Assembly: GCA_945834475.1 (NCBI GenBank)
Contig: CAMAHK010000003.1
Coordinates: 900 to 64,899 of the forward strand
Direction of reading: 5' to 3'
DNA: 64,000 nt
Origin: an uncultured Verrucomicrobiota bacterium
Lineage (GTDB): Bacteria; Verrucomicrobiota; Kiritimatiellia; RFP12; UBA1067
Shown here: positions 3,616 through 46,776 of the stretch, one piece after another
How the letters are laid out: each line of letters starts with the position of its first letter
How positions within the stretch are numbered: the stretch's first letter is position 1
The notes under the pieces: model-generated
Databases searched by the model: none
What the model was told of the DNA's origin: nothing
What the model saw: the letters and a program-made list of their open reading frames with translations, nothing else
Made by a program: the position numbers and the translations under genes

Positions 3616-6081
3616 TTAACTCTCGCGGACTTCGACGCCGGCCGTCCCCTTCAGCGCATCGACGATACGCTGGAAGACCCGTCCGACCTCGTCATCCGTC
3701 AACGTCTTCTCGGCCGAGCGGAACTCGAGCGAGTAGGCGCGAGACGTCTTGAAGATATCAAAGAGCATCACCTTTGTCAACTCCTTGCCGCCGTTCTTGC
3801 GGATGACGTCCACGACCTGGTCGTTCGTGACACCCGTGCCGACGGTGATCGCGATGTCACGCTTCACCGACGGGAACTGCGGAACCGGCGAGACGCGACC
3901 CGTCTCGTTCGTCTTCTTGAGCAGCATCTTCGCCTCAAGCTCGCAGAGTGCCATCTGCGTCGTCAGACGGAACGGATGGCGAAGCTTCGCCGAGACCGCG
4001 CCGAGAACGCCGATCGTCTTGCCGTTGAGCTTGACCGAAAGCGCCGCCGCGAAGGCGGAATGGTCAACGGGCGCAAACTCGACGCGCCCCGCATGGAGCT
4101 TCGCGATGAGTTCCTCGACAATGCCCTTCATCCAAAGGACCGCTTCCTCTTCCGTCACCGCCGCGCGACGGCGAAGCGCCTCGCGTCCCACGGGACCGAC
4201 AAGACCGAGGGAGAGCATCTCCTTCTCGCAGGGAATGGAAGTCGGCGCCGTGTTTTGCTGGTCAACGCCGCGGCCGGGGACGGCTCGCGGTACGGTGTAG
4301 AACACCTTGCCCAATTCGAAGAGCATCGCCGACTCCTCGTGCGCCGCGTTGCGGCCGAGGGTCTGGTAGAGCTGCGGCAGCAGGCTGTCGCGCATGACAC
4401 CGTATTCCGCCGAGACGGGATCGGGAATGATGAGACGCGTGTCGCTCGCCCCCGCGAAGTCCTTGAGCTCCTTCTCCGAGAGGAACGAATAGTGCATCGC
4501 CTCCGAGAAGCCAAGCCCCATCGCAATCTCGCGCACCTTCGCCTTCGCGCGGAACGGTGCGTCGGAAAGCGGCGAGACGGACGGCGCGGACGGCATCGTA
4601 TCGGGAATGTTGTCGAGCCCGTAGAGACGTGCGATCTCCTCGACGAGATCGGCCTCCATCGTCAAATCCCAGCGCCAGGACGGAATCTCGAACGCAACGG
4701 ACTTCTCCGCCGCAAAACGGTCGAGCGTCGACAGCACCTTGAGGCCCAGCGACTGCAGGATGAACACCATCGCGTCGTTGCCGATGTCGATGCCGATCAG
4801 CTTGCGCGCGCGGTCAAAGTCGAGCGTGACGGGCTCGTTGGTGCCGTGCTCGCCCTTCACGCGATTGTCGATGTCAACGAGGCCCTTCGCGATCTTCGCG
4901 TGGCCGTACTGCTGCAGGAGGTGCGCGGCACGACGCGAAGCCGTGTCGGCGATGTCCTTGTCGACGCCGCGGATGTAACGGTAGGAGGATTCGCTGCCAA
5001 GGCCGAGCGTCGTCGCCGTCGCCTTGATCGTCGTCGGCTCGAAGAGTGCGCTCTCGAGCATCACCGTCTTCGTGCCGGGCGCAATGCCCGAGTTCTCGCC
5101 GCCCATCACACCCGCGACGGCGTTCGGCTTCTCGGCATCGCAGATGACGAGCATTGACGGATCGAGCTTGCGCTCGACGCCGTCCAGCGTCATCATCTTC
5201 TCGCCTTCCTTCGCGTCGCGCACGACGATCGTACGGTCCTTCAGCGTCGTGTGGTCAAAGGCATGCATCGGCGCACCGAGCTCGAGCATCACGTAGTTCG
5301 TGACGTCGACCGCAAGACCGAGCGAACGGACGCCGCAGAGCTCGAGGCGCTTGGCCATCCAGTCCGGACTCGGCGCATCGGGCGTCATCTCGGTGACGAC
5401 GCGGGCGGTGTACCGGAGGCACTTCGCGGGATTCTCAACAACGACCTTGACCTCCGAGTTGACGTCCGTCGCCTCTTCGGTGAAGTCGGTCGGCGGGAGC
5501 GTCAGCGGACGGTTCAGGATCGCCGCGTATTCGCGGGCGAGGCCGACGATCGAGAGCGCGTCGGGACGGTTCCACGTCACTTCAATATCAAAGACGACCT
5601 CGGGCTTCTCGAGCTTCGCAATGTCACGGACGAGCGCGCCGGTCGGGGTTTCCGCCGGATACTCGATGATGCCGTCCGCACCCTGGCCGATGTGGAGTTC
5701 CTTCTCGGAGCAGCACATGCCGTTGGACTCAACGCCGCGGAGCTTGCCCTTCTTGATCTTGAACTCGCCTTCGGGGATCAGCGCGCCGATCTTCGCGAAC
5801 GCCGTCTTGATGCCCTTGCGCATGTTCGGCGCACCGCAGACGACCTGATACTCGGTCGTGCCGTCCGTCACCTTGCAGACCTGGAGGTGATCCGAATTCG
5901 GATGCGCCTCGCATTCGAGAACCTCGACGACGACAATGAGATCCGAGAGCGGATCGCCGCCGACCGTGTCGATGGACTCCACCTGGAGTCCCGCACGCGT
6001 CAGCTTCTCCGCCAGTTCCTTCGGGTCGATGTCATCGACCTTCACATAATCATTCAGCCACGACAGGGGCAACTTCATCAT
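3616..6081 (-). CDS. pheT: Phenylalanine--tRNA ligase beta subunit
   Basis: 821-aa ORF with N-terminal MMKLPLSWLNDYV, a tRNA-binding domain, and B3/4, B5 and FDX-ACB-like regions. The alternative start at 6078 is equally possible. It carries a solo repeat arm at 4267-4293. Confidence 0.95.
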   Translation of the reverse strand: MMKLPLSWLNDYVKVDDIDPKELAEKLTRAGLQVESIDTVGGDPLSDLIVVVEVLECEAHPNSDHLQVCKVTDGTTEYQVVCGAPNMRKGIKTAFAKIGALIPEGEFKIKKGKLRGVESNGMCCSEKELHIGQGADGIIEYPAETPTGALVRDIAKLEKPEVVFDIEVTWNRPDALSIVGLAREYAAILNRPLTLPPTDFTEEATDVNSEVKVVVENPAKCLRYTARVVTEMTPDAPSPDWMAKRLELCGVRSLGLAVDVTNYVMLELGAPMHAFDHTTLKDRTIVVRDAKEGEKMMTLDGVERKLDPSMLVICDAEKPNAVAGVMGGENSGIAPGTKTVMLESALFEPTTIKATATTLGLGSESSYRYIRGVDKDIADTASRRAAHLLQQYGHAKIAKGLVDIDNRVKGEHGTNEPVTLDFDRARKLIGIDIGNDAMVFILQSLGLKVLSTLDRFAAEKSVAFEIPSWRWDLTMEADLVEEIARLYGLDNIPDTMPSAPSVSPLSDAPFRAKAKVREIAMGLGFSEAMHYSFLSEKELKDFAGASDTRLIIPDPVSAEYGVMRDSLLPQLYQTLGRNAAHEESAMLFELGKVFYTVPRAVPGRGVDQQNTAPTSIPCEKEMLSLGLVGPVGREALRRRAAVTEEEAVLWMKGIVEELIAKLHAGRVEFAPVDHSAFAAALSVKLNGKTIGVLGAVSAKLRHPFRLTTQMALCELEAKMLLKKTNETGRVSPVPQFPSVKRDIAITVGTGVTNDQVVDVIRKNGGKELTKVMLFDIFKTSRAYSLEFRSAEKTLTDDEVGRVFQRIVDALKGTAGVEVRES
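4267..4293. repeat. Class-1 palindromic element, solo arm (in pheT)
   Basis: GCCGCGGCCGGGGACGGCTCGCGGTAC matches the right arm of the argS copy at 25 of 27 positions. It is translated as TVPRAVPGRG. Confidence 0.6.
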
Positions 6082-7555
6082 TCTTCTCCTCTTCAGAAAT
6101 CAAATTCGTACCGTCGTGCGTCCCCGCCGACGGCGCGGTAACAGCCGCAACCTCAGTCTCCTCCGTTTCAGCGCCGCGGGCGAGACGCACCGCGGTACGG
6201 TCTTCGGCCTTCCGCTTCTTCCACTGCGGACCGTACTTCGGATTCTTCTCGACAGCCGAGTAGACGCCGTTCGTAAACGAGACCGCATGACCCGTCGAGA
6301 CGAGCCACTGGAGGTGCTTCTCAAAGTCCGCAATCTCCGCCGGGAACTCCGACTTGTCAAGGCACGGATGCGCATCGAGATACTTCGAAACGGCCGCGAG
6401 CTCGGGAATCGCGTGCTCGGCGTCAAACGGCTTCAATTCGGCCGCGACGACAAACTCGGGACCACGCGCCTCGTTCGCACGGAAGATATTGAGCTTGCGG
6501 TGATGGAATGCGCCGCGGAGAGCGTAGATCATCGCGTACGGTGCGCGGCGTTCGGCCGCAATCGCGTCGTTGACCGCCCAGACGAGCGGCTTCGCCGGCG
6601 ACGTCGCCGCGACGCTCGCCTTGATCATGAGGTGCTTCGGCTTGTCGACAAGCGACGGCAGGACGACACGCTTGAACTCGCCCTCGGCCTGTTCACGCGT
6701 CAGTTGCGCCGCGCCTTCGGTCTCGGCCTCGCCCTTGTGGAAGAAGACCGTCTTCTTGACCGCGCTCGCCCGCCACGCTTCGATGGACTCCGTATCCCGC
6801 ACCATCTCGATGCGGGAGCGATAGTCCGCCTCGGACATGTTCGGATACTTCGTGCGGATCATCTTCTTGACGACCGCGTTGAACTCATGGATGTTCGGCG
6901 GCCCCAAGAGGATGCCCGAAAGCCCGCACTTCGCGACGCACGTGAAATTGCCCTTCGGCGGCTCGCAGTCGATCTCCTTCGCATCGTAGTACTCGCCGAG
7001 ATGCGCCGAGAGGACGTGTTCGAGAACATCCTCTTCCTTCGTGGACGCAAAACCGCAGACTTTACACTGATAAAAAGAGGTTGAGGTCGAAGGTTGAGGT
7101 TGAGAACCCTGTGGAGCCTTAGGAGAAATCTTCAGGAGGATCGACTCGGGATTGTCGAGGAAGAAGTACGCGAGGTCCTTGAGCTTGTACGCGTGCGTGT
7201 CGCCCTGGATCTTGCGGATGATCGTGCCAAGCGCCTTCGTCTCGGGCAGGATCTTCACTTCGCACGCGAGCGGCTGCGGCTTCTCGAAACTCGGACGGTC
7301 GAAGCGCGGCTTATCGCCAAAAGACTTGCGCGGACGGTCCCCCATCGGCTTGCGCTCGCCAAAGGGCTTTCGGCCCTCGCCAAAGTTCCGACGCGGCTTG
7401 TCGCCACCGCCAAAACCCGAACGCGGCCGATCGTCCTCAACGCGTCCACGGCCGCCCTCGACCGTGACCTTCTCGTCTTTCTTGGCCCAAGCCGGCGTAA
7501 AGTCAAACGCCCCCAGAGAACCCAAGTCAATCGCATTAGTCTTTTCTTCGCTCAT
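6050..7555 (-). CDS. Hypothetical protein with an Arg/Gly/Pro-rich N-terminus and one classical C2H2 zinc finger
   Basis: I prefer the internal ATG at 7555 (MSEEKTNAIDL). The RG-rich stretch reads GGGDKPRRNFGEGRKPFGERKPMGDRPRKSFGDKPRFDRP. The finger is YQCKVCGFASTKEEDVLEHVLSAH (about 7001-7066). The 3' end overlaps the pheT start by about 30 nt. Confidence 0.7.
   Translation of the reverse strand: MSEEKTNAIDLGSLGAFDFTPAWAKKDEKVTVEGGRGRVEDDRPRSGFGGGDKPRRNFGEGRKPFGERKPMGDRPRKSFGDKPRFDRPSFEKPQPLACEVKILPETKALGTIIRKIQGDTHAYKLKDLAYFFLDNPESILLKISPKAPQGSQPQPSTSTSFYQCKVCGFASTKEEDVLEHVLSAHLGEYYDAKEIDCEPPKGNFTCVAKCGLSGILLGPPNIHEFNAVVKKMIRTKYPNMSEADYRSRIEMVRDTESIEAWRASAVKKTVFFHKGEAETEGAAQLTREQAEGEFKRVVLPSLVDKPKHLMIKASVAATSPAKPLVWAVNDAIAAERRAPYAMIYALRGAFHHRKLNIFRANEARGPEFVVAAELKPFDAEHAIPELAAVSKYLDAHPCLDKSEFPAEIADFEKHLQWLVSTGHAVSFTNGVYSAVEKNPKYGPQWKKRKAEDRTAVRLARGAETEETEVAAVTAPSAGTHDGTNLISEEEKNDEVAPVVAE
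6108..6198. repeat. Class-1 palindromic element, 91-bp doublet (in the C2H2 protein gene)
   Basis: GTACCGTCGTGCGTCCCCGCC ... GCCGCGGGCGAGACGCACCGCGGTAC. The spacer (GGCGCGGTAACAGCCG ... CTCCGTTTCAGCGCC) resembles the spacer of the 92-bp subfamily. It is translated as RTAVRLARGAETEETEVAAVTAPSAGTHDGT. Confidence 0.8.
7077..7104. repeat. GAGGTT-type simple repeat inside the C2H2 protein gene
   Basis: GAGGTTGAGGTCGAAGGTTGAGGTTGAG on the plus strand, translated on the minus strand as QPQPSTSTS. Confidence 0.7.
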
Positions 7556-7564
7556 AACCTGTAT

Positions 7565-7573
7565 ATTATAGCA
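7565..7573 (-). promoter_or_regulatory. Extended -10 box TGCTATAAT, 9 nt upstream of the ATG at 7555
   Basis: The minus strand reads TGCTATAATATACAGGTT-ATG with no SD. Confidence 0.5.
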
Positions 7574-7619
7574 CAATCCTGTGCGAGAGTGTCAAAGTAG
7601 ACGCAAGTCTCATCTTACG

Positions 7620-10021: not shown

Positions 10022-10921
10022 ATGATCGTTTCCGTCATCATTCCCGTCTACAACGTCGCCCCGTATCTCCGCGCCGGCCTTGATTCGGTGCGCACCGCAG
10101 CCGAAAACCAGTCCGCGGCGACAGTCGAGATCATCTGTGTCGACGACGGGTCGACGGACGGGTCGACCGGAATCCTCGACACATCCCCCTCGCCTGCCGT
10201 CCCGCACACGCTCAAGGTCCTGCATTGTCCCCACCGGGGCGTTTCCGCCGCGCGCAACGCCGGATTAGACGCTGCCACGGGCGATCTCATCCTCTTTGCC
10301 GATCCCGACGACATGGTTGCTGCCGATTGGATCGCGAACCTGATCCGCGCAGCGGCCAACGCCGATCTCGTCTGGACGGGATACGCGCAGGACGGCATCC
10401 GCCACGAGCCCTCCGACGTCAACCAGACTTACGTCGGCGACGCAATCCGTCGCCGTCTCTGGCGCGCCGTCTTCGGCTACCGACTGCGCGATCTCGCGAA
10501 ACTGTTCCTTCCCGGAGGACTTTGGACGCGCTGCAAACGCGAAATGGCGGGCGTCTGGCGTTGTGCCGTCCGTCGCGAGACCCTTGGAGGTCTCCGCTTT
10601 GACCCAAGCCTGAGTCTTTACGAAGACGCGATGTTCATCACCGAACTGGCGACCCGCGCCCGCCGTCTCGGCGTTGTCGGGGACTGCGGCTATGACTGGC
10701 GCGTTCGCCCGACCGGCGCGATGTCCCGCGAATTCCGCGAGCGCGCCGTCGTCCACAAATTCGCCGTCCGCAACGTCCGCGCCCGGATCGACCCGAAGAA
10801 GACCCACTGGCGCGGCACATTCCTGCTCTCGGCTCTTGAGATCCTCAAGACCGCCGGCTTCGCCTGCGCGATCCGTTATCTCACGGGGAAAGACCCCGAC
10901 CTCACTTGCCGCCGAGCTTGA
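10022..10921 (+). CDS. Family 2 glycosyltransferase
   Basis: MIVSVIIPVYNVAPYL ... CVDDGSTDGS ... DPDD pattern typical of GT2. This is the only plus-strand gene I accept. Its 3' end overlaps the convergent gene by 20 nt. Confidence 0.8.
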   Translation: MIVSVIIPVYNVAPYLRAGLDSVRTAAENQSAATVEIICVDDGSTDGSTGILDTSPSPAVPHTLKVLHCPHRGVSAARNAGLDAATGDLILFADPDDMVAADWIANLIRAAANADLVWTGYAQDGIRHEPSDVNQTYVGDAIRRRLWRAVFGYRLRDLAKLFLPGGLWTRCKREMAGVWRCAVRRETLGGLRFDPSLSLYEDAMFITELATRARRLGVVGDCGYDWRVRPTGAMSREFRERAVVHKFAVRNVRARIDPKKTHWRGTFLLSALEILKTAGFACAIRYLTGKDPDLTCRRA

Positions 10922-13900
10922 GCCAGACGCGGAGAAGTTCCGAGTCGCTCCAGGCCTGAGCCGTGCAGCCCTTCTGGGCATGCGGCGCATCGCCGTCGGC
11001 GTTCTCGCTCACGTGACAGAGACAGCCCGCGTTGACGTTCTCGACGGCCGTCGCGAGAAGCTGCAGCGCAACCTCCTTCGAACAGCTCTTCGTCATCGCC
11101 AGGGCCTCCGCATAGAGCGGGAACGGCCACGCCCAGATCGTCCCGTTGTGATACGCGGGCTTCCGGCATGTGTCCTCGTCGCCCGCATAGACGCCGCGAT
11201 ACATCGGATGCTCCGCGTTGAGCGAACGGACTCCGCCCGGCACGAGCAGTTCCTCGGTCGCCGCGAGGATCGACTTGTCGTCGAGCACGCCCAGCGTGAT
11301 GAGAAAGAGCTGGTTCGGACGGATCGTGTCCTCCGGCTTCGCCAAAGCCGCAGGCTCCCCATTCGGTGCCGCGAGACAATCGTAGTACCCCGTACCGCGG
11401 TGCGTCTCGCCCGCGGCGTCTCCAAGCCCCTCTCCCCCAACCTTGAAATACTTCGTGACGCTGGCCAGCGCCTTCTCGGCGAGTTCCGTGCGTCCGAGGA
11501 AGCGAAGCGCCGAGATCCAGAGCGCCTGAATCTCGACCGGATACCCGATGCGCGGCGTACAGGCTGGATAGTTCGTATCCATCCACGTGAAGTGCGACGG
11601 CGACCAGATCAGCGCCGACTCCGGATCCATGTGAATCCCGTTCGGCGTCCCCGAGATGTAATGGTCGACAATCGACTCGCAAGTCTTTTTGAGCGTGGAT
11701 ATAGTACCCGGCGTGACCTCACGCCGAGGCGTGGTATCAGCCGACTGACTCAAGGCTTCCGTGTCAGCGCCACGGCGTGAGGTCACGCCGGGTACTTGAG
11801 ACACCTCTTGCACACAGCGGATGAACCAGAGCTGGGCGTCGGTCGTGTCGCGGTTGCCGGCCGTCTTGCCGTAGATGATGTTGGGAAGCGTCCCGTTCTC
11901 CTCGAACGCGGCGAACGCCTGAAGGATGCGCACGGAGTCCTCGATCTTCCCCGCGGCAATCATACCGCGCATGAAGATGAACGTGTCGCGTCCCCAGTCG
12001 AGGAACCACGGATACCCCGCGATCACGGTTTTCAAATCATCGCGTTTGACAATGAAGAGGTCCAGCGACTGCGCGAGCGCAGTCGCAAAAGACACCGTAC
12101 CGCGAGCGGCCTTCGGCTGCGTCGCTTCGCTCGGCTGTTTCTCGGCCGCGGCACTCTCCAAGACGCCTGTTGCCACGCCGCCGGCGAGGACGCTCGGCGG
12201 TACGGTGTTCAGCCCCCCTAGTATCTCCGCCGTCTCGCCGACCTTGAGGTCGGCCGAGATCCAGCCGGGCGAATAGAGGTCGCCCGAGCCGTCCTGTCCG
12301 CGCGCCGCCTCCTCGGCGTGCGACACGTTGTAGATCCACTCGGGCTCGTGGTGGTACGCGCCATTGACGACGCGCATCGCGAACGTCTCCCCATACGGCG
12401 CGAAGTCAAACCCCGCCGACGTACCCGCAGCCGTACCGCGGTGCGTCTCGCCCGAACAGCCGAGCGAAGCGAGACAGCCGCAGGCCGCGTCTCCAAGCCC
12501 ATCCCCGTTACCCGCCGCGGGCGAGACGCACCGCGGTACGGTTTTCTCCCTGAACAGCCCTTCCGCCCCACCATACGCCTTCGTCGTCGCATGGAAGCTG
12601 CGCCATTCGATGTCGGGACGGAACACAAGGCGAACCTGATCGCCGACATCGTCCTCGCCTGCGTCGCCGCGCGTCACGGTAAGCCGCGCGACATTGCCCT
12701 TCTCCAGCGCGAGTGTGAACGCAAAGGCAGTCTCACGGCCCATGCCGCACGGCACACGGAAGTCCCACGTCGCGAAGCGTCCCGCCGGATCGGCCGTAAA
12801 GCGCGTCACACACTTCATGTCGAGTTCGCGCACATAGCCCTCGCGCTGCAGCCAGCACCGTGTGCGCGCCCAGAGGTTGAGACGGTCGGACGGTACATCG
12901 GGATTCGGATTCGCCGCGAGCGTCGCGTCGTACTGGCTCGCAATCGAGCCCCAGGCGACGCGCAGCTGCGCCGCGGCCCCCTCGCCGTTCGAGAGGATCG
13001 TGCGCATCAGCGGATTCTTGCGCACCTCCTCACCCATCAGCGACAGCTTCACCTTCGCCTGACGCGAGCGCGGCGGGATCAAGAGTTCGGAGACCGTCCG
13101 CGTCGTCGCATGCGCGGCATAGACCGTCATTTTGAAGACCAGTCGCCGACACGCCGTGCCGTCGCCCTTATAGTGCGGCGCGTCAAAGGTAATGAGGTTG
13201 AGGTTAGAGGTTGAGAGATTGGTTGAAGACGAGAGGTTGGCGGGGACGGAGCGATAGGCGCGGATCGTCTTGCCGGTCGCCGGATCGACAATCTCGAGGC
13301 GGAAACGATGCGGCGCCGAAACCTCCAGAAGCTGGTTCTCCGGCACGCAGACCTGCCGCCGCGCGTCCCGCGGATACACCCAATGGAAGGTGTGACGAGT
13401 ACCCGGCGTGACCTCACGCCGAGGCGCGGTAACAGCCGACTGACTCAAGACCTCCGTGTCAGCGCCACGGCGTGAGGTCACGCCGGGTACTTCTTCCACG
13501 CACAGCACTTCGCCCGGCTTGAGGAACTCCTTGCCCGACAGGTAGCGCCGTTCTCCCGTGATGAGATCGGTGACCTCACCCCCCGGGAACTTCGCGGCGT
13601 CCCACGCGATCGTCGCGCCATTGGCGCAGTCGAGATTGGCGAGAATGAGAACCTTGTCAGCGCCTGTCGCCGAGACGGCGACGGTACGGACGACGGCAAG
13701 CGTATTACCCTCGCCGCGCGTCACGACCTCGAGGTGACTCGCGTTCGCGAAGCTCGGATGTGTCGAGAGAATCGCATTGAGCCGCGAAATGAGCGGCACC
13801 ATGTTGTTGGACGCGCCCCAGTTGAGGTCGTTCTTGCCGTGGACGTCGATCTTCTCGGTCGCGTACCACTCGACGCCATTCGCCATACCCCACGCGCCCT

Positions 13901-15116
13901 GCCACGAGAGCAGCGCGGCGAGCTGGACGCGCAAGCGCGCGTAAGTGACGCCGCTCTTCGCGAGGCGGTCGTTGTCGTGCGTTTCGGCGAAGTGGACGAG
14001 CGTGCCGAACTTCTCGGACCGCGCAATCGCTCCGGGCAGATACCACTCGAACGCGCCGCGGTCGTAGGTCTGGAAGATTTCCGAATACGCCCAGTCGAGA
14101 TTCGCCTCGGCGAGAAGCGCGTCCGTCACCTCGAGCTTGCCGCCGAGGCCCTCGAGCATGAAGACCGTGTCGGGATACTCCTCGCGGACACGCGCGACGA
14201 TGTATTCCCAGGTCTTGAGCGGGATCATGTACCCCGCGTCACAGCGGAAGCCGTCCACGCCATTCCGGCACCAGAAGAGGAAGACATCCGCCATGTAAGC
14301 GCGGAGTTCCGGCTTCGAATAGTCGAGCTCGACAAGGTCCGCCCACTTGACACCCCACGCGCCCGGCGAATGGAAGCGTCCGTCGGCCTCATGCGAGAAC
14401 CAGTCCGGATGATGCGTCTGCAGCGTCGATGCCCAGCCCGTGTGGTTCGCCGGCAGGTCAACGAAGAAGAGTCCCTCGCGGGCATGGACGGCGTCCACAA
14501 GCTCGCGGAACTGATCGAGCGGCGTCGCGAACTCGTCGAACTCGGCCATCGCCGGATCGACCGAGAAGAAGTCCGTCGCGGCGAACGGACACCCATACTC
14601 GCCCATCACCGCGTACGTCGTCGGCACGGGGAACGGCGGCAGCGTCTGAATGATCTTGAAGCCCATGTCGCCCATGATGAAGTCGAGCTTGCGGGCGACG
14701 GCACGGAACGAGCCAAACTGACGCGGGAAGACCGTGTAGATCGAGTTGTTCGTGCGCGTGTCGGCGCTCTCGACCTTGACGTGCGTGTTCGGACCCTCCG
14801 GCCACTCGGGTACGTTCGAGCCCTCCGGGAAGAAACAAGCCTTGCCAGAGAAGATACCGACCTCATTGAGCGGAATCGTCACGTGAAAGACGCCCGGCGC
14901 CGTCTCGGCCATCGGGATATCGGTCCACGCCCGCGCGAGCGGCGTCTCGCCGCGCTCGGTCTCGGCGATGATCTCGCGACGGCGGATGCGCGCGTTGCCG
15001 AGGTTCGTACGGAACGCGGCGCGTCCCTTCCGCGGCGCATCGAGGGTCAGGGTCACGTCAAGGGAATCACCGCGCCATTTGAGAATGAAGTCGTTAGTCG
15101 AGGGGAACTGGGTCAT
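10902..15116 (-). CDS. Bifunctional-type glycogen debranching enzyme (N-terminal GH13 alpha-amylase-family domain plus C-terminal GH133 amylo-alpha-1,6-glucosidase/GDE_C domain)
   Basis: 1404-aa ORF. GH13 signatures are GFRCDAGYMIP, FMLEGLGG and FAETHDN. GDE_C signatures are GYPWFLDWGRDTFI and GTIWAWPFPLY. It is interrupted in-frame by at least five palindromic repeat copies and one simple-repeat array. Confidence 0.85.
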   Translation of the reverse strand: MTQFPSTNDFILKWRGDSLDVTLTLDAPRKGRAAFRTNLGNARIRRREIIAETERGETPLARAWTDIPMAETAPGVFHVTIPLNEVGIFSGKACFFPEGSNVPEWPEGPNTHVKVESADTRTNNSIYTVFPRQFGSFRAVARKLDFIMGDMGFKIIQTLPPFPVPTTYAVMGEYGCPFAATDFFSVDPAMAEFDEFATPLDQFRELVDAVHAREGLFFVDLPANHTGWASTLQTHHPDWFSHEADGRFHSPGAWGVKWADLVELDYSKPELRAYMADVFLFWCRNGVDGFRCDAGYMIPLKTWEYIVARVREEYPDTVFMLEGLGGKLEVTDALLAEANLDWAYSEIFQTYDRGAFEWYLPGAIARSEKFGTLVHFAETHDNDRLAKSGVTYARLRVQLAALLSWQGAWGMANGVEWYATEKIDVHGKNDLNWGASNNMVPLISRLNAILSTHPSFANASHLEVVTRGEGNTLAVVRTVAVSATGADKVLILANLDCANGATIAWDAAKFPGGEVTDLITGERRYLSGKEFLKPGEVLCVEEVPGVTSRRGADTEVLSQSAVTAPRREVTPGTRHTFHWVYPRDARRQVCVPENQLLEVSAPHRFRLEIVDPATGKTIRAYRSVPANLSSSTNLSTSNLNLITFDAPHYKGDGTACRRLVFKMTVYAAHATTRTVSELLIPPRSRQAKVKLSLMGEEVRKNPLMRTILSNGEGAAAQLRVAWGSIASQYDATLAANPNPDVPSDRLNLWARTRCWLQREGYVRELDMKCVTRFTADPAGRFATWDFRVPCGMGRETAFAFTLALEKGNVARLTVTRGDAGEDDVGDQVRLVFRPDIEWRSFHATTKAYGGAEGLFREKTVPRCVSPAAGNGDGLGDAACGCLASLGCSGETHRGTAAGTSAGFDFAPYGETFAMRVVNGAYHHEPEWIYNVSHAEEAARGQDGSGDLYSPGWISADLKVGETAEILGGLNTVPPSVLAGGVATGVLESAAAEKQPSEATQPKAARGTVSFATALAQSLDLFIVKRDDLKTVIAGYPWFLDWGRDTFIFMRGMIAAGKIEDSVRILQAFAAFEENGTLPNIIYGKTAGNRDTTDAQLWFIRCVQEVSQVPGVTSRRGADTEALSQSADTTPRREVTPGTISTLKKTCESIVDHYISGTPNGIHMDPESALIWSPSHFTWMDTNYPACTPRIGYPVEIQALWISALRFLGRTELAEKALASVTKYFKVGGEGLGDAAGETHRGTGYYDCLAAPNGEPAALAKPEDTIRPNQLFLITLGVLDDKSILAATEELLVPGGVRSLNAEHPMYRGVYAGDEDTCRKPAYHNGTIWAWPFPLYAEALAMTKSCSKEVALQLLATAVENVNAGCLCHVSENADGDAPHAQKGCTAQAWSDSELLRVWLKLGGK
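11392..11429. repeat. Class-1 element, solo arm plus GTCTCCAAGCCC tail (in the debranching enzyme gene)
   Basis: GTACCGCGGTGCGTCTCGCCCGCGGCGTCTCCAAGCCC, translated as GLGDAAGETHRGT. Confidence 0.85.
11704..11795. repeat. Class-1 related 92-bp nested palindrome, copy 1 (in the debranching enzyme gene)
   Basis: Perfect 23-nt terminal inverted repeats GTACCCGGCGTGACCTCACGCCG / CGGCGTGAGGTCACGCCGGGTAC. Each arm is itself a palindrome (GGCGTGA-CC-TCACGCC). It is translated as VPGVTSRRGADTEALSQSADTTPRREVTPGT. Confidence 0.9.
12097..12203. repeat. Class-1 element, 107-bp doublet, type 2 (in the debranching enzyme gene)
   Basis: GTACCGCGAGCGGCCTTCGGCTGCGTCGCTTCGCTCGGCTG ... GCCGGCGAGGACGCTCGGCGGTAC. 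The first 55 nt are identical to the copy at 15374. Confidence 0.9.
12433..12539. repeat. Class-1 element, 107-bp doublet, type 1 (in the debranching enzyme gene)
   Basis: GTACCGCGGTGCGTCTCGCCC ... GGGCGAGACGCACCGCGGTAC are perfect 21-nt inverted termini. The internal module CAGCCGAGCGAAGCGAGACAGCCGCAGGCCGC is the inverse of the module in the type 2 copies. Confidence 0.9.
13194..13240. repeat. GAGGTT-type simple repeat inside the debranching enzyme gene
   Basis: GAGGTTGAGGTTAGAGGTTGAGAGATTGGTTGAAGACGAGAGGTTGG, translated as ANLSSSTNLSTSNLNL. Confidence 0.7.
13399..13490. repeat. 92-bp nested palindrome, copy 2 (in the debranching enzyme gene)
   Basis: It matches the copy at 11704-11795 at 88 of 92 positions by hand alignment. 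It is translated as VPGVTSRRGADTEVLSQSAVTAPRREVTPGT. Confidence 0.9.
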
Positions 15117-15165: not shown

Positions 15166-16119
15166 TTATTGCCAAAGGGATTTGAGATAGGCGAGGCCTG
15201 CGGCGAGTTCGGGTTCGGTGATGCCGGCGTGGGGTTCGAAAACGATGTGGCGCACCGTTTCGGCAAGCGGTTTCAGCGCGGCAAAATCGACCTTGCCCTG
15301 TCCCGGCGCGAGATGGTCATCGCCTCCGACCGAGTCGTTGATGTGCAAGCCCAACACCGTACCGTCCAGCCCCGTACCGCGAGCGGCCTTCGGCTGCGTC
15401 GCTTCGCTCGGCTGTTTCTCGGCCGCGGCGTCTCCAAGCTCCCCCGTACCAGCACCGCGGGCGAGGACGCTCCGCGGTACGAAGTTATGCCGAACAAAGT
15501 CATGCCCCGTGTCAAACCAGGGCTTCACCCAGTCGCCGCAAAGCTGACCGATCTCCCATTCGGCGGGGAAGCCCTCGAGATACGGCAGGTTCTCGAGCCC
15601 GAGCGTCACCTTGTTCGCCTCGAGGTCAGGCACAAGCGCGGCGAGTTCCTTCTTCGCAATGTCAATCATCTTGAGGCCGCGCTTCACGCGGCGACTGAAG
15701 TCCCAACGCGAGAAGCACCCGCGGCACATCACACGGCCGAGATGCAGGACAAGCGCGTCGGCCCCCATCTCCGCAGCAAAGCGGATGTTCTTGCGAATCT
15801 GGAACTGAGCCATCTTCCGCGCCTCCTCGTCGAACGAGGCGAGGTGGTAAAGTTCGGGATACCCCTGCGGTGCGGAAATCGGGACGGGACAAAATGCGTG
15901 CACAGACCCGACAGGCATCTCATCGAGCCGCGCCTTGAAGCCCTTCACTTGGAAATCCGTCGTATGGAAGCCGAGCTCCAACGCCTTGAACCCCAGACGG
16001 AGCGCCATATCGACAATCTCCTCCCCGGACTCCAGACGCCGATTGCACCAATTAGTCGAGAGCGCGAACGTCGCGCTCCACCGATTAATCGTCCCATTCG
16101 TCTTCCCGCTTTCTGTCAT
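15166..16119 (-). CDS. Sugar phosphate isomerase/epimerase (xylose isomerase-like TIM barrel)
   Basis: 317-aa ORF with ALELGFH ... ADALVLHLGRV ... LGLENLPY pattern. It carries a 107-bp repeat element at 15374-15480. Confidence 0.75.
   Translation of the reverse strand: MTESGKTNGTINRWSATFALSTNWCNRRLESGEEIVDMALRLGFKALELGFHTTDFQVKGFKARLDEMPVGSVHAFCPVPISAPQGYPELYHLASFDEEARKMAQFQIRKNIRFAAEMGADALVLHLGRVMCRGCFSRWDFSRRVKRGLKMIDIAKKELAALVPDLEANKVTLGLENLPYLEGFPAEWEIGQLCGDWVKPWFDTGHDFVRHNFVPRSVLARGAGTGELGDAAAEKQPSEATQPKAARGTGLDGTVLGLHINDSVGGDDHLAPGQGKVDFAALKPLAETVRHIVFEPHAGITEPELAAGLAYLKSLWQ
15374..15480. repeat. Class-1 element, 107-bp doublet, type 2 (in the TIM-barrel isomerase gene)
   Basis: It has the same GTACC...GGTAC termini and the same internal module as 12097-12203. 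It is translated as VPRSVLARGAGTGELGDAAAEKQPSEATQPKAARGT. Confidence 0.9.
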
Positions 16120-18778: not shown

Positions 18779-18811
18779 ATTCCATGATTGTGCCTGGCAC
18801 AATCATGGAAT
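18779..18811 (-). terminator. Probable intrinsic terminator after the GH84 gene (16-bp perfect hairpin followed by a T-run), abutting the smc -10 box
   Basis: ATTCCATGATTGTGCC-T-GGCACAATCATGGAAT. On the minus strand the hairpin is followed by TTTTG. Confidence 0.55.
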
Positions 18812-21789: not shown

Positions 21790-23112
21790 TCATTCACGCC
21801 CGTTTGACATCGTTTTCGGCAAAACCAAACTGACACTCGCGTTTTCGGGACGGAAGATTTCCGCCGCCACGGCCTGGACGTCGGCGGCTGTCACGCGCTT
21901 GATGGCCTCGACCTGTTCTTGCGGCATCACCAGGCGGTCAAACGAGAGCGCGGTGTTGCCGTAGAAGAAGAGCTTCGACGTCACCTTCTCGTGCGAGAGC
22001 CGGAAATTGCCAACAAGGAACTCCTTGATGCGCTTGAGCTCCGTCACCGAGACACGCTTCGCCACCAGCTTCTGCAACTCCCGGTCGATCGTCGCACGGG
22101 CCTTGTCGCCCTTCGCGGCGTCGAGTCCCGCCGTGATCGAGAGAAAGCCCGCATCCTGAAAGAACTGCATCCGCGAGGAAATGTCATAACTGAGTCCGCG
22201 CTTCTCGCGCACTTCCTGAAAAAGCCGGCTTGACATGCCACGTCCGAGGATCGCGTCCAGCACCGTCGCCGCGTACTTGCGCTCGTCGTGGATGCCGAAC
22301 GTGCGATACCCGAGCGCGAGCTGCGCCTGATTGACATCCTTGCGCGCGACGACTTCGGGGGTCGGAGGAAGGAGAACTGCGGAAGAAATGTTTTTATTCC
22401 GACGCGACAGGAGTGTCGCGTCCCCGGCTGGCGTGGACAATGGGGACGCGACACTCTTGTCGCGTCGCAACAAAGATTTCCCACCTCTTTCCCCCAGAGC
22501 CCGCGCGACGACGTCAAGCGCCATCTCGGGCTCGAATGCGCCGACGACGACGGCTATCGTGGCCGTCGGCAGGTAGTGCGCCTTGATATACTGGCGCAAG
22601 TCGTCCGGCGTCAGCGGTCCGAGCGACTTCGCACTGCCGGCGACGGGACGCCCGAGAGGATGCTTCGGGAAGAGCGCGGCCTGCAGGTTCTCCATCGCGA
22701 CGCAGTCCGGCTCGTCCGCATACATTTTGATTTCCTCGATCACGACATCCTTCTCGCGTGCGAACTCGTCAGCGGGAATCGTCGCGTTGAGGTACATGTC
22801 GGAAATGATGTCGACCGCCTCCTCCAGATACTCGCTCGGCAAATGCACGAAGTAGCAGGTCGATTCCTCGCCCGTACAGGCGTTGAAGTTGCCGCCACGT
22901 CCTTCGATCGCCCGCGTGATGTCGATCGGGCGCCGCGTGGGCGTCCCCTTGAAAAGCATGTGTTCGATGAAATGCGAAATGCCAGCCGTCTTCGCCGTCT
23001 CATGGCGCGAGCCGGACGCAATGAAGAGTCCGAACGCAACGGACTCCGCTTCACAGGGAACCAGCACGACTCGAAGGCCGTTGGATAGAATGTGTTGCTG
23101 AGGACGATTCAT
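21790..23112 (-). CDS. M16-family (pitrilysin-like) zinc peptidase
   Basis: HFIEHMLFKGT zinc-binding motif (HxxEH) in a 440-aa ORF. It is interrupted by a 68-bp palindromic element at 22400-22467. Confidence 0.9.
   Translation of the reverse strand: MNRPQQHILSNGLRVVLVPCEAESVAFGLFIASGSRHETAKTAGISHFIEHMLFKGTPTRRPIDITRAIEGRGGNFNACTGEESTCYFVHLPSEYLEEAVDIISDMYLNATIPADEFAREKDVVIEEIKMYADEPDCVAMENLQAALFPKHPLGRPVAGSAKSLGPLTPDDLRQYIKAHYLPTATIAVVVGAFEPEMALDVVARALGERGGKSLLRRDKSVASPLSTPAGDATLLSRRNKNISSAVLLPPTPEVVARKDVNQAQLALGYRTFGIHDERKYAATVLDAILGRGMSSRLFQEVREKRGLSYDISSRMQFFQDAGFLSITAGLDAAKGDKARATIDRELQKLVAKRVSVTELKRIKEFLVGNFRLSHEKVTSKLFFYGNTALSFDRLVMPQEQVEAIKRVTAADVQAVAAEIFRPENASVSLVLPKTMSNGRE
22400..22467. 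repeat. Class-2 68-bp nested palindrome (in the M16 peptidase gene)
   Basis: CGACGCGACAGGAGTGTCGCGTCCCC ... GGGGACGCGACACTCTTGTCGCGTCG. Each arm contains GCGACA..TGTCGC. It is translated as RRDKSVASPLSTPAGDATLLSRR. Confidence 0.9.
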
Positions 23113-23951
23113 AAAACCTTAACAAGGCCGACCGCCGCGGAGTAGCCCGCACCGAAGCCGGCGATCAAGGCTGTGGCTCCGCCGGTCGGGATGCGGTCCG
23201 TGTTCGTCGCAAGCGTCAGCGGAATCGAACAGCTCCCCGGATTCTTGAGCGCGGGATCGAGCGTCAGGAGTTGCTCCGTGAGGCCGAGAGCTTTCGCAAG
23301 CTGGCGGACCATGTAGGGGTTCGCCTGGTGGGGGATGAAGAGCGCCGCGCCCGAGGCTGGCCGCGGTACGGCGCTGGTCACGAAGCGATCCAGCATCGCC
23401 TTCACTTCGGTCGCCACGAAGGTGAAGACCTTCATGCCATCCATATGGATCGGACCCGTCGCCGAGCAGGTCAGCGCATCGTCGGCGCGCGAGAGAAAAT
23501 CGAAATAGCTCTTCTCCGTCGCTGTCGCATCGGACGAGATGACGCTCACGGTCATCGCGTCGGAAAAGATCTCGCCCGTCGCGTGATCGGCGCGATCGAC
23601 GAGCGGCGTCTGGCAGTCGCCGTTGACGACAAGCACCTTCTTGCCCGTATCCGCCGCGAGGCGTCCCGCGAGATAGACGGCGTACGGATACGCGCTGCAG
23701 GCCATCTGCAAGTCAAACGCCGGCGTTGAAGGCGAAAGGCCGAGCTCCGCGGCGACGCGCACCGCCAATGAGGGAAAGCGCTCGGGATTCGAAAACGTCG
23801 CGGCAATCACCCCGCCGACGTTCTCGACGGGCCCGAGGGACTGAAGGGCTTCACGAACAAGGGCAAGATGGCCTGGAGACGCCGCGGGCGAGGCGCACCG
23901 CGGTACGGAATAAGAAACCTTCTCAATGACAACAAGAGGAACTTCCACCAT
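23109..23951 (-). CDS. KAS-III (FabH)-like condensing enzyme, short form
   Basis: Cys (MACSAY), His (IPHQANP) and Asn (NPGSCSIP) triad context plus C-terminal GFGAGYS. ATGA overlap with the M16 peptidase gene. A repeat arm lies near the N-terminus. Confidence 0.7.
   Translation of the reverse strand: MVEVPLVVIEKVSYSVPRCASPAASPGHLALVREALQSLGPVENVGGVIAATFSNPERFPSLAVRVAAELGLSPSTPAFDLQMACSAYPYAVYLAGRLAADTGKKVLVVNGDCQTPLVDRADHATGEIFSDAMTVSVISSDATATEKSYFDFLSRADDALTCSATGPIHMDGMKVFTFVATEVKAMLDRFVTSAVPRPASGAALFIPHQANPYMVRQLAKALGLTEQLLTLDPALKNPGSCSIPLTLATNTDRIPTGGATALIAGFGAGYSAAVGLVKVL
23875..23906. repeat. Class-1 element, solo arm (in the KAS-III-like gene)
   Basis: GGAGACGCCGCGGGCGAGGCGCACCGCGGTAC, translated as VPRCASPAASP. 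Confidence 0.8.
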
Positions 23952-31086: not shown

Positions 31087-32168
31087 ACAGACCTCCGCAA
31101 CGTCAACGTGAACACACAACCCTTCGGCTCATTCGCCGCAACCGTCAGATCGCCACCCATCAAGCGGGCAAAGCTCCGCGCATTCGCCAAACCGATGCCA
31201 AAACCGCCCTTGCCGCTCTGCGAGGTGCGCTTTGCACGGTAGTAGCGGCGGAAGATCTTCCGTCGTTCGCCAGCCGTCAACCCCGGCCCCTCATCGACAA
31301 AACTGACGCGCACACAAGTCCGATCGGACGCAAAACGGACGCGCACGAGTCCGTACGGCGCGGCGTACTTCATTTCGTTCGCGAGTAGATTCCAAAGGAT
31401 CTGGACGGTTTTCGTGCGGTCGGCCAAGACCTCCAAACGTTCAGGACATTCGACCGCCACGTCCTTGCCGTCGAAAAGGAATCGGAAGTCCTCCTTGAAC
31501 AGCGCGTAAGCCTCTTCATAAGCCGCGCGCAAGTCAAAGGCCTCTGTCTGCAGGCGATGTCGACGCCCATCCACAAGCGTGAGGGAATCCGTCAGATTCT
31601 TGACGAGCCGCATCATCCGTTCGGAAACGCGCACCGCCTCCCCGGGTTCGCGACGAATGAGTCGACGCAGCGCCACAAGAGGCGTCGTCAGATCGTGGGC
31701 GGTCGCAGCAATAAAGTCGTCGCGTTCCTTCACCGACCTGTAAAAGAGCCAACAGCCTGCGATCGTCACGCACCAGAAAACCACCAGTGCAATGCCGAGC
31801 GTCGGTAGGATGAGCGAACTGAACGGCAGACGATCAGGATGCGGCACATCAACGACCTGCATCCGCTTGTTGTTCAGATACCAGACTGTGATTCGGTCAT
31901 CATATTCGACATACCCCCAACGTCCCTTTCCGATAGAGTAGGCGTTCTTCCAGCCTTCGGGACGCTCGGGACGCTGTCTTCCAACGCCCTTTTCAGGGTG
32001 ATCCCGCAAATCCTCAACAGCCTCTCGGCATTCCGCCTTGAGTTGCGCCTGTTCACGCTCCTCGTAAATCGGCAAAAGCCGACGACAGGCCCGAACAGAC
32101 AGATACGTCGCCAGCAGCGCCGGCAAGCAAATGCAGTAGATTCCGCCAATGATCCGCCTGTCGATCAT
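31083..32168 (-). CDS. Sensor histidine kinase, HisKA/HATPase_c (classical type)
   Basis: H-box is FIAATAHDLTTPL. It also has NLLANEMKY, DEGPGL and GGFGIGL boxes and two predicted TM segments. Confidence 0.85.
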   Translation of the reverse strand: MIDRRIIGGIYCICLPALLATYLSVRACRRLLPIYEEREQAQLKAECREAVEDLRDHPEKGVGRQRPERPEGWKNAYSIGKGRWGYVEYDDRITVWYLNNKRMQVVDVPHPDRLPFSSLILPTLGIALVVFWCVTIAGCWLFYRSVKERDDFIAATAHDLTTPLVALRRLIRREPGEAVRVSERMMRLVKNLTDSLTLVDGRRHRLQTEAFDLRAAYEEAYALFKEDFRFLFDGKDVAVECPERLEVLADRTKTVQILWNLLANEMKYAAPYGLVRVRFASDRTCVRVSFVDEGPGLTAGERRKIFRRYYRAKRTSQSGKGGFGIGLANARSFARLMGGDLTVAANEPKGCVFTLTLRRSV

Positions 32169-33139
32169 AACCCCATCAGCTTTTTCGCCGCCGCAAATTG
32201 CGCGGACAGATCGACCTTGCGCGATCCGTCGACATAGCCGTCAGCGCGCAAGTTCTCGACGAAGCGACGAAACTTGTGCGAACCCGGATTCAAGTTGTCG
32301 AGCGCCACAACCTCGGCCGAACCAAAGGTACAGGCCTCCGAGAGCATCCCCGTCGACTCGGCCGTCACGTAAAGCCGCTTCGCGAGTTTCACGAACGCCG
32401 GAATCGGATTGAAATGATCCTTCGAATAGAGAAGCTTGTAGTCCCACGGATACGAGTCGATCAGCGCCTCGATCTCCGGCGGCGTCCGGCGCGAGGTTGT
32501 GACACAACGGAGAATTGGCGAATTGCCGAATTGGCGAATTGCCGAATCGGCGAAGATTGCATCCAATTCGCGTTTCATCCAGTCGACGGACATCGTCGAG
32601 CACTTATTGGGGCCGCCGACGATCACGGCGACGAGCGGACGCGCCGCGACCTGGTCGGCGGTGAAGCCGCTGTGGTTGTAGAACGCCGCGACGCCCTTCT
32701 CGTAGAACGCCGCATCGGCCGCGACGAGGTTCGCCGGAATCTCGATCACGTTCGGCGCCGCCGCGGGACGGTCGAACGCCGGCGCGAGCACGCAGTCGAA
32801 CGACGCGATGTCATACCCGCGCGGATAGAGAACGGCGCCGCACGTGACGCCCAGCTTCTTCGCCAGCGCCTTCGCGGCATAGAAGGTTCCCGACCCGGTG
32901 CCGATCACGGCGACAAACGCCGTACTGCGGCGCGTCTCGCCCGCGACGCTCTCCCACCCCCTCACCAGACCAAGCGCCCTAATGCCCAGGCGGTCGCACG
33001 CATACGAGAGCGCCTTGTGGAACTTGGACTTGAACTGCACGGGAACGATCTCGAACTCACAACCAAGCGCACGGGCAAAGGCCTTGGACTGGTTTTCGTG
33101 TCCGGCCTTGCCGTCAGTCAGAATCAGAACCTTAGACAT
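32165..33139 (-). CDS. ELM1/DUF1022-family protein (putative glycosyltransferase-like)
   Basis: I prefer the ATG at 33139 (MSKVLILTDGKAGHENQSKAFARALG). The track start is 33157. It contains the octamer-repeat insertion at 32511-32560. The family call is from memory. Confidence 0.65.
   Translation of the reverse strand: MSKVLILTDGKAGHENQSKAFARALGCEFEIVPVQFKSKFHKALSYACDRLGIRALGLVRGWESVAGETRRSTAFVAVIGTGSGTFYAAKALAKKLGVTCGAVLYPRGYDIASFDCVLAPAFDRPAAAPNVIEIPANLVAADAAFYEKGVAAFYNHSGFTADQVAARPLVAVIVGGPNKCSTMSVDWMKRELDAIFADSAIRQFGNSPILRCVTTSRRTPPEIEALIDSYPWDYKLLYSKDHFNPIPAFVKLAKRLYVTAESTGMLSEACTFGSAEVVALDNLNPGSHKFRRFVENLRADGYVDGSRKVDLSAQFAAAKKLMGL
32511..32560. repeat. Octamer tandem array (AATTGGCG/AATTGCCG)n (in the ELM1-like gene)
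   Basis: AGAATTGGCGAATTGCCGAATTGGCGAATTGCCGAATCGGCGAAGATTGC with 8-nt periodicity. It is translated as IFADSAIRQFGNSPILR. Confidence 0.85.
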
Positions 33140-41751: not shown

Positions 41752-41767
41752 ACGCCAATCTCCTCGT

Positions 41768-41785
41768 TCTCCACCTCTACACGGC
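41768..41785. repeat. 18-mer GCCGTGTAGAGGTGGAGA (reverse orientation) just upstream of the nadD ATG
   Basis: The same 18-mer occurs at 60226-60243 inside the FAD oxidoreductase gene. Confidence 0.7.
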
Positions 41786-41793
41786 CCCAAAGC

Positions 41794-42586: not shown

Positions 42587-42622
42587 GCAATTCGCCAATT
42601 CGTCAATTCGTCAATTCGCCAA
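42587..42622. repeat. Octamer tandem array (GCCAATTC/GTCAATTC)n, intergenic between the S1 gene stop and the proC start
   Basis: GCAATTCGCCAATTCGTCAATTCGTCAATTCGCCAA is the reverse complement of the unit at 32511. Confidence 0.85.
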
Positions 42623-44900: not shown

Positions 44901-44914
44901 GCAAAATCCTTTGT

Positions 44915-44949
44915 CAACCTCAACCTTCGACCTCAACCTTGAACCCACC
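44915..44949. repeat. (CAACCT)n-like array between the argS stop and the ABC ATPase start
   Basis: The coding strand reads AGGTGGGTTCAAGGTTGAGGTCGAAGGTTGAGGTTG upstream of the ATG at 44900. It is nearly identical to the array at 7077-7104. Confidence 0.75.
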
Positions 44950-46767: not shown

Positions 46768-46776
46768 ATTCTATCA
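46768..46776 (-). promoter_or_regulatory. Extended -10 box TGATAGAAT, 12 nt upstream of the argS ATG, overlapping the dus stop codon
   Basis: The minus strand reads TGATAGAATATTCAACTAGTT-ATG. Confidence 0.45.

Follow-up and report, generated by a model that had tools for sequence, protein, structure and literature searches.

REP-like palindromes, probably translated as extra protein loops, inside housekeeping genes of an uncultured Kiritimatiellae lineage

Introduction

Selfish palindromes that lie in frame within genes have mostly been discussed as a peculiarity of Rickettsia, and the usual explanation is weak selection in a small intracellular population. Here we analyze a 64,000-nucleotide stretch of DNA (referred to as the window) from an uncultured Verrucomicrobiota bacterium of the class Kiritimatiellia (contig CAMAHK010000003.1, assembly GCA_945834475.1), in which a family of short GC-rich palindromes recurs inside unrelated housekeeping genes. 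We consider it likely that the palindromes are selfish elements of the repetitive extragenic palindromic (REP) or REP doublet forming hairpin (REPIN) type, most probably translated as extra loops of the host proteins, and that they have recently expanded in one lineage of uncultured pig-gut Kiritimatiellae.

Several systems of this kind have been described. Rickettsia palindromic elements (RPEs; Ogata et al., 2000, 2002) are AT-rich, 105-146 bp long, and occur in an obligate intracellular alphaproteobacterium with a reduced genome; 19 of 44 RPE-1 copies (about 43%) lie in genes. REPs with a terminal GTAG/CGTC tag are also found within genes, most numerously in Opitutus terrae, a member of the Verrucomicrobia in the Planctomycetes-Verrucomicrobia-Chlamydiae (PVC) superphylum, and in Rickettsia conorii (Di Nocera et al., 2013, PMC3733652). 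In that study, dimers within open reading frames (ORFs) encode 20-30 amino acids, double inserts occur in some genes, tRNA synthetases and repair genes are among the hosts, and different REPs occupy the same site of orthologous recB genes. The degenerate tags published there are GYAG, GYRG, GTRG, GTMG and GTGG, and GTAC is not among them. Intragenic REPs and RPEs therefore have precedent (PMC3733652, PMC10969869, PMC2229807). The family described here is a dense further case, which differs from the published ones in its GTAC tag, the intragenic location of every main-family copy seen, its high local density and its use of a single reading frame.

The likeness to the REPs of Di Nocera et al. 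extends to the short hairpin with a terminal tetranucleotide, the occurrence as singles, dimers and groups, several inserts in one gene, tRNA-synthetase and repair hosts, different REPs at one orthologous site, and the PVC superphylum. However, the tag is GTAC, inserts are found in 12 of about 51 genes, single-frame use is not described there, and none of about 19 main-family sites is intergenic, whereas most published copies are. With RPEs the elements have in common that palindromic selfish DNA lies in frame in conserved housekeeping genes, at sites that the fold tolerates and where orthologues lack it, that each element encodes a recurring peptide, and that one genome harbors several families. 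They are set apart from RPE-1 to RPE-10 by their host: at 39-107 nt they are GC-rich and reside in gut-associated Kiritimatiellae at 61% GC, not in Rickettsia, and sequence kinship is not expected. REPIN systems with a REP-associated tyrosine transposase (RAYT), known from Pseudomonas, E. coli and others, likewise combine two inverted hairpins and a spacer with singlets and compensatory changes, and a related Kiritimatiellae genome contains a REPtron with the identical hairpin apex; in contrast to those systems, the family is intragenic rather than extragenic, is tagged with GTAC, and its cognate RAYT was not found. Finally, in-frame MITEs (miniature transposable elements with inverted repeats), such as the 107-bp form of Correia, ERIC/IRU and YPAL (Delihas, 2007, 2008), are also small palindromes with ORFs fused in frame. 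Those elements have TA duplications and are mostly intergenic, whereas here no target-site duplication is seen, solo hairpins are common and the architecture is REP-like.

Results and Discussion

Copies and host genes

The preliminary description of the window had proposed that a 26-nt palindromic arm recurs throughout it. The 26-mer GTACCGCGGTGCGTCTCGCCCGCGGC has 12 matches with up to three mismatches, 7 of them exact, compared with none in 100 dinucleotide-preserving shuffles of the window. Copies were recovered by repeat finding, direct reading and self-BLAST, and diverged arms by a scan for GTA followed by a hairpin. Once diverged arms are counted, the main family occupies about 19 sites, and a second, unrelated palindrome family adds 2 further sites. 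The sites comprise about 11 solos, 8 doublets and one three-unit tandem; element sequence totals about 1.4 kb, or about 2% of the window. The copies are as follows (doublets are given without a strand).

4267-4293, minus strand: solo arm variant GTACCGCGAGCCGTCCCCGGCCGCGGC in pheT (3616-6081), read VPRAVPGRG
6108-6198, no strand: 91-nt doublet lying 27 nt upstream of the pheT start, within the final 50 codons of ORF 6050-7576
11392-11429, plus strand: solo 39-nt unit (38 nt + 1) in the debranching-enzyme gene (10902-15116), read GLGDAAGETHRGT; 12 orthologues lack it
11704-11795, no strand: 92-nt subfamily doublet with arms GTACCCGGCGTGACCTCACGCCG, debranching-enzyme gene; clean 31-aa insertion relative to orthologues
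12097-12203, no strand: 107-nt doublet, debranching-enzyme gene, with a 33-34-nt module (12106-12139) nested in the loop of one arm
12433-12539, no strand: 107-nt doublet of consensus arms in which the 33-nt module has the opposite orientation; its 36 codons are lacking in 12 orthologues
13399-13490, no strand: second copy of the 92-nt subfamily, in a hypervariable linker of the debranching-enzyme gene
13663-13687, minus strand: possible old, diverged solo arm GTACCGTCGCCGTCTCGGCGACAGG (uncertain), variable loop of the debranching enzyme
15374-15480, no strand: 107-nt doublet with nested module, gene for a xylose-isomerase-like TIM-barrel protein (15166-16119)
22393-22474, no strand: second-family palindrome with arms GGGGACGCGACACTCTTGTCGCGTCG, M16 peptidase gene, read RRDKSVASP...GDATLLSRR
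23344-23369, minus strand: diverged solo arm, KAS-III-like gene, read VPRPASGAA
23875-23906, minus strand: solo arm with a single mismatch that reads VPRCASPAASP and spans codons 16-26 of the KAS-III-like gene (23109-23951)
32918-32969, plus strand: diverged solo unit with 3 mismatches, ELM1-like gene (32165-33157)
36785-36823, plus strand: solo 39-nt unit in mutS (35446-37962), read GGLESAAGETHRGT
37391-37456, no strand: doublet of the second family in mutS, sharing 88% identity and its reading frame with 22399-22464
41543-41616, no strand: minimal doublet of 74 nt in nadD, which adds 26 codons net when compared with the orthologue
45233-45307, no strand: 75-nt doublet in argS (44950-46755), in the loop preceding the DALR domain; the shortest orthologues lack it
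45491-45516, plus strand: diverged solo arm GTACCGTCGCTGTCCTCAGCGACAGG, second variable loop of argS, read PVAEDSDGT
47006-47070, plus strand: solo arm with the 33-nt module in dus (46774-47916); orthologues lack it
47498-47614, plus strand: three tandem 39-nt units in dus, read three times as (..AAGETHRGT); orthologues lack them
59850-59884, plus strand: diverged solo arm that reads ETAPRPETACGT within the FAD-oxidoreductase gene (58829-60757); present also in contigs L171-L173

The copies at 23344, 32918 and 45491, possibly that at 13663, and the two second-family sites are additions to those known before. The previously reported coordinates of the others were accurate, except for the nadD doublet, which had been placed at 41516-41616: the insert is real but spans 41543-41616, and 41516-41542 aligns with host sequence in the orthologue. 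The 92-nt copies are 96% identical to each other.

All copies lie within minus-strand ORFs with coding-type GC content at third codon positions and a frame that is intact throughout, so that the earlier statement on their residence in intact ORFs of unrelated proteins stands. The 12 host genes encode PheT, a Cys/His-containing protein, the debranching enzyme, the TIM-barrel protein, the M16 peptidase, the KAS-III-like protein, an ELM1-like protein, MutS, NadD, ArgS, Dus and the FAD oxidoreductase. Five inserts fall into the gene for the debranching enzyme (1404 aa, glycogen-debranching) and two each into mutS, argS and dus, and inserts lengthen the proteins by 7-20%. Most of the names given to these genes before are backed by Pfam matches (PheT, GDE for the debranching enzyme, TIM-barrel, KAS-III-like, NadD, Dus, FAD oxidoreductase, ELM1-like), and ArgS was confirmed. 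MutS is named from its conserved N-terminal motif alone, and the Cys/His ORF, formerly a "C2H2 protein", had no match in the Pfam scan. The window is at least 95.7% coding, its minus strand carries 50 of about 51 genes and the plus-strand GC skew is -0.07; co-orientation of the whole stretch with replication is probable.

The family also has copies beyond the window, as the preliminary description had led us to expect: in two short contigs from other samples, a tandem pair of 39-nt units lies in frame within a different gene. In contig L184, a two-unit tandem joins different arm variants, and an intergenic copy of the second family directly follows a stop codon.

Arm structure

Each arm consists of GTAC and a hairpin, CCGCGG-T-GCG / TCT / CGC-CCGCGG. 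The complete unit of 39 nt comprises the GTAC tag, the hairpin of 8-9 bp and a short tail, and hence is a 20-40-nt imperfect palindrome with a conserved stem-loop, as in REPs. Sixteen distinct arm variants were found, all of them with GTA followed by a hairpin that folds at -12.5 to -16 kcal/mol, and with an invariant GTAC tag (16 of 16). Stem changes are compensated in CCGTCG/CGACGG (6108), CCGCCG/CGGCGG (12203) and CCCGGCGTG/CACGCCG (92-nt subfamily). In a MAFFT alignment whose register is partly off, pairing reaches 79.7% of the cells compared with 71.3% after shuffling, and 11 cells show double changes compared with 5.3; each value was reached by 1 of 500 shuffles.

The units occur as 39-nt solos in either orientation, as inverted doublets of 74-75 nt or 107 nt, as the 92-nt subfamily and as tandem groups, i.e., as the singlets, inverted dimers and clusters typical of REPs. 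The REPIN- or RPE-like architecture that had been proposed is thus borne out. The folding energy of the doublets is around -44 kcal/mol (z about -11); values for individual doublets are -44 kcal/mol and z -10 (11704-11795), -41.7 kcal/mol and z -6.8 (12433-12539), and -44.6 kcal/mol and z -11 (nadD). The two arms of one doublet can be different variants (12097-12203, 6108-6198). A module of 33-34 nt, AACAGCCGAGCGAAGCGACGCAGCCGAAGGCCGC, is present at 12106-12139, 15383-15416, 47028-47061 and 12455-12488, nested in arms at two positions and in two orientations; alone it is not a hairpin (z +1.1). The module is also found in the Kiritimatiellia metagenome-assembled genome JAZLMR01, within an apparently intergenic repeat of about 350 nt (L007 7260-7287; L008 203-230).

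Doublet arms of 27-29 bp pair perfectly and constitute terminal inverted repeats. This arrangement raises the question of whether the elements are conventional MITEs, i.e., internally deleted derivatives of insertion sequences of the DDE type that are mobilized in trans via these 27-29-bp repeats, with the solos as decay products. Folding of the doublets as one long hairpin with near-perfect terminal repeats would fit, as would the TA within the termini (G-TA-C), a feature of many bacterial MITEs (PMC2229807), and the failure to find a RAYT near the elements. We nevertheless regard this origin as unlikely. Solos are as frequent as doublets, each arm is a hairpin of its own with compensation within the arm, the arms of a doublet can differ, and tandem groups mix arm variants. 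Moreover, no target-site duplication is visible: the flanks prolong the palindrome (CCGTACC...GGTACGG), so that conserved bases reach beyond the TA. Under duplication of TA, the net inserts would measure 70, 88 and 103 nt; each of these is 3n+1 and would disrupt frames that are in fact intact, and TA-duplicating MITEs were rejected on this arithmetic. The sizes from GTAC to GTAC (74, 92 and 107 nt) are all 3n+2 and, together with two conserved flanking bases on each side (shown for the main family only), amount to whole codons. No insertion sequence with the same termini was found in 2.19 Mb of related loci.

Hairpin conservation and encoded peptides

The peptides encoded by arm variants diverge widely, as in VPRCVSPAA, VPPSVLAGG, VPRPASGAA and VPGVTSRRG. 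Because the hairpin is kept while the peptides differ among the 16 variants, the sequences indicate that the constraint is on nucleic-acid structure rather than on the protein, in agreement with the earlier view of the conserved unit as a DNA palindrome.

This result bears on the possibility that a functional peptide or linker module (VP...GT) has been favored by selection on the protein and dispersed by recombination, its palindromy being incidental. Such a module would explain the almost exclusive use of one frame, the linker-like peptides rich in Gly, Ala, Thr and Pro, and the fixation of the inserts across all strains seen. We find it very improbable even so, because seven identical 26-mers are spread over five unrelated genes without synonymous drift, opposite orientations yield unrelated peptides (VPRCVSPAA and AAGETHRGT), variants preserve the hairpin and not the peptide, and the host proteins are functionally unrelated and have orthologues that function without inserts.

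Reading frame

Arms at the 3' end of inserts read ...GGT-ACN in 17 of 17 cases, and arms at the 5' end read GTA-CCG in 9 of 12 (hyphens mark codon boundaries). The probability that 15 independent sites agree on the frame by chance is roughly 10^-7. For the main family, five of the six combinations of frame and orientation are open, and stop codons therefore do not explain the bias. The frame in use specifies a peptide rich in Gly, Ala, Pro and Thr (VPRCVSPAAG...LGDAAGETHRGT) with a net charge of -1 to +1, whereas the open alternatives would add 8-13 arginines and a net charge of +7 to +13. The use of the one near-neutral frame suggests selection on a translated insert. In the simplest reading of these sequences, the inserts are translated and insertions in basic frames have been removed by selection. 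One example of a predicted host-insert junction peptide is ...SPFKTVPRCVPPAAGNSGLGDAAGETHRGTEDN....

The preliminary description had stated that copies are read in more than one frame. This is marginally correct, but one frame dominates, and the argument built on several frames is weak. The 92-nt subfamily is open in one frame only, so its frame constancy is trivial. All five asymmetric doublets have the same orientation relative to the gene; five are too few to interpret. The left arm of the doublet at 6108-6198 is the compensated variant CCGTCG/CGACGG, and its 5' arm is in a non-standard frame. As the length of this doublet is not 3n, it may originally have been a gene-end insertion.

Could the inserts remain untranslated, either excised from the mRNA or passed over by the ribosome in a programmed bypass? 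The mRNA hairpins would be very stable (up to -44 kcal/mol), and the GTAC at both ends might provide matching take-off and landing sites. However, the inserts preserve the frame, lack stop codons and use the frame of the benign peptide, all of which would be needless if they were skipped. In addition, the offset from GTA to GTA is 3n+1, and a hop would shift the frame; a translational bypass element was rejected on this ground. Rfam and tRNA scans of the window gave no matches, and no Rfam family or intron-like RNA was detected. Inteins and introns were rejected on account of the short length of the elements and the lack of an RNA family. Non-translation is, in our view, hardly credible.

Comparison with orthologues

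In order to be insertions, the element segments should be missing from orthologues. This was found at 9 of 9 sites tested in related Kiritimatiellae (ArgS, NadD, two in Dus and five in the debranching enzyme), in line with the lineage-specific loop insertions that the preliminary description had predicted and with the in-frame insertion at permissive sites that characterizes RPEs. All nine sites are variable loops, in which the length of the orthologues varies as well. The segments in NadD, at both Dus sites and in ArgS are missing in the syntenic relative L005 (78-84% amino-acid identity) and in others. Twelve orthologues of the debranching enzyme lack all five segments; clean insertions account for three of these, while the other two are located in hypervariable linkers. 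The NadD insert separates two blocks that can be aligned to solved NadD structures, with 39 residues in place of 11. Homologues of ArgS, together with 160 loci, assign the window to uncultured Kiritimatiellae of gut or rumen; ArgS is only about 79% identical to its closest counterparts among GTDB species representatives. An AlphaFold model of ArgS from a 15-sequence alignment, with a mean pLDDT of 53, is too poor for structural placement of the insert; in this poor model, residues 484-508 and 404-422 are low-confidence coil.

Overlapping contigs from other samples, one of them labelled pig metagenome, are 99.0-100% identical to the window and contain the same elements (L003, SPAdes, 99.35%; L169, MEGAHIT, 100%; L171, 99.8%; L172, 99.0%; L173, Logan). 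Contigs of this lineage come from the pig-gut samples ERZ978717, ERZ11474010, ERZ11448878 and SRR5666092. The source is a metagenome, and assemblers can be misled by repeats; still, an artefact of assembly or of chimera formation is excluded for all practical purposes, since different samples and assemblers yielded contigs with these same inserts and all frames are intact.

Two features of NadD may be mentioned here. The host segment 41516-41542, GCCGCGGGCCGCGGTACGG, is identical to a REP arm without its 9-nt apex and aligns with ordinary residues of the orthologue, adjacent to the real insertion, at a distance of 27 nt; mimicry of the target, gene conversion and mere coincidence are candidate explanations. 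Residues of about 192-259 of NadD (window 41008-41790) form a Cys-rich C-terminal extension, CPCRLQKLPEFFCPCDEF...HGLCHCRLY, which is kept in the relative L005 and weakly matches PF02943, the ferredoxin-thioredoxin reductase catalytic beta chain (22.6 bits).

Lineage distribution and mobilization

Hairpin arms tagged with GTACC number 23 in the window, 7 in contig L003 (12.8 kb, same population), and at most one per locus in 80 loci of related species. The exact 26-mer has no matches in 185,579 GTDB species representatives. A search of metagenomes at JGI with a 22-mer core gave two matches, which were both rejected as chance occurrences in unrelated coding DNA without a GTAC tag. Among 5.8 billion proteins, a search with the element peptides returned two small proteins only; it did not return the proteins of the window itself, hence it is no census.

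A classic REPtron was found in a related genome. It occupies 4980-6180 of locus L050 (identical to L174), and L175-L177 contain close copies. Its Y1_Tnp protein has 226 aa (26.8 bits in Pfam, where the cut-off is 23), and the gene is bounded on both sides by REP doublets TGACTGGGGGAAGCGGCGTCTCGCCGCTTGCTAC...AAGCGGCGGGACGCCGCTTCCCCCAGTCA. These REPs and the arms of the window have a common 10-nt hairpin apex, GGCGAGACGC with the variant GGCGGGACGC, i.e., the motif GGCG(A/G)GACGC. A tBLASTn search of the window and 2.19 Mb of related loci with this RAYT found its own locus only, and none of the 9 RAYT loci in a scan of GTDB is flanked by GTAC-tagged arms.

In-frame palindromes are not confined to the window. 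GTAG-tagged REP hairpins lie in frame in the same ArgS loop of other species (L078, L081, L028, L010), and 20 of 80 species have an insert of at least 6 aa in that loop. In many related species, differing species-specific REP-like inserts occur in the same two ArgS loops, after window residues of about 403-425 and about 485 (loci L009-L088); several are tagged with CTAC/GTAG, and some are tandem (L028, L078; protein P0032 with 3 x SRSDCGGAGRSALPTGDVGFGF). In-frame REPs thus appear to be a clade trait with recurrent use of permissive loops.

We propose that a RAYT-type Y1/HUH transposase encoded elsewhere in the genome would recognize the single-stranded hairpin with its tag and would copy units around the chromosome. 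As about 96% of the DNA is coding, most landings would fall inside genes. The surviving copies are those in variable loops and linkers that comprise whole codons in the near-neutral frame, presumably as a result of selection, and their translation products would be tolerated as extra surface loops, much like those of RPEs.

Several observations weigh against this proposal. The tag is GTAC and not the GTAG/CGTC of REPs, and the location is not predominantly extragenic as in REPs; in fact, the main family was not seen in intergenic DNA at any of its roughly 19 sites, with only about 2.7 kb of intergenic sequence in view. No Y1/RAYT or other transposase was found in the window and the overlapping lineage contigs, and 2.19 Mb of related DNA yielded none apart from the REPtron of L050. 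The GTAG of the relatives sits on the opposite side of the asymmetric loop (GAGAC versus GTCTC) from the GTAC of the window, so that homology between the arms and the REPs of the relatives is suggestive only. All six overlapping contigs keep all elements, and neither a strain without an element nor a presence/absence polymorphism was seen among them. Mobility is therefore judged from copy identity and distribution, and translation we infer from the frame. With these points taken into account, an identity as translated REP- or REPIN-type elements still seems likely to us, while for mobilization by a RAYT, taken alone, we lean only slightly towards acceptance.

It is conceivable, though rather doubtful, that the family, in a genome with only about 4% intergenic DNA, has adapted to life within genes, being free of stop codons, encoding a neutral flexible peptide in one frame and amplifying mainly in coding sequence, and that the same holds across gut Kiritimatiellae, in which different REP families recur in the same protein loops. 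Alternatively, insertion itself may be frame-aware or coupled to transcription. If this is so, the proteins of a gut-associated bacterium, unlike Rickettsia not an obligate intracellular parasite, would continually gain loop insertions, with selfish palindromes as a major source, and drift in a small intracellular population would be a poor explanation.

Whatever the extent of such adaptation, the phenomenon known from Rickettsia is found here at equal or higher local density in gut-associated Kiritimatiellae. The recurrence of REPs in ArgS loops across species offers many natural before/after pairs. It opens for study how proteins tolerate or use random loop insertions, how REPs are filtered by frame, and how REP/RAYT systems behave with almost no intergenic space. 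In such genomes, the inserts will also confuse orthology calls, domain boundaries and structure prediction.

Further short repeats in the window

Other short repeats were noted in the window, whose last ORF runs off the right end. An 8-nt tandem repeat, (GCGAATTG/CCGAATTG)n, is present at 32509-32547 and 42587-42624 in opposite orientation; contig L003 and the window are one unit apart in its copy number. A degenerate 8-nt repeat at about 47615-47670, just upstream of the tandem REP units, is seemingly read in frame in Dus (IGNWLIGELANGRMSGGR) and is lacking in orthologues. A sequence of 26 nt, AGGTTGAGGTCGAAGGTTGAGGTTGA, is repeated exactly in two genes that are unrelated (7078-7103 and 44914-44939). 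Comparable (GGTTGAG)n tracts encode segments rich in Ser, Thr, Asn and Leu, namely NLSSSTNLSTSNLNL in the debranching enzyme (about 13190-13240) and LSTSTSS in NadD; these segments are longer than in orthologues, and the tracts may be a further class of in-frame short repeats. Lastly, AT-rich near-perfect palindromes in two intergenic gaps (18779-18811 and 47907-47964) may be operators or terminators, and their motif GTCTCATAAATGAGAC is also found in L183 (about 150-175), an unrelated contig from this population, where it lies upstream of a gene.

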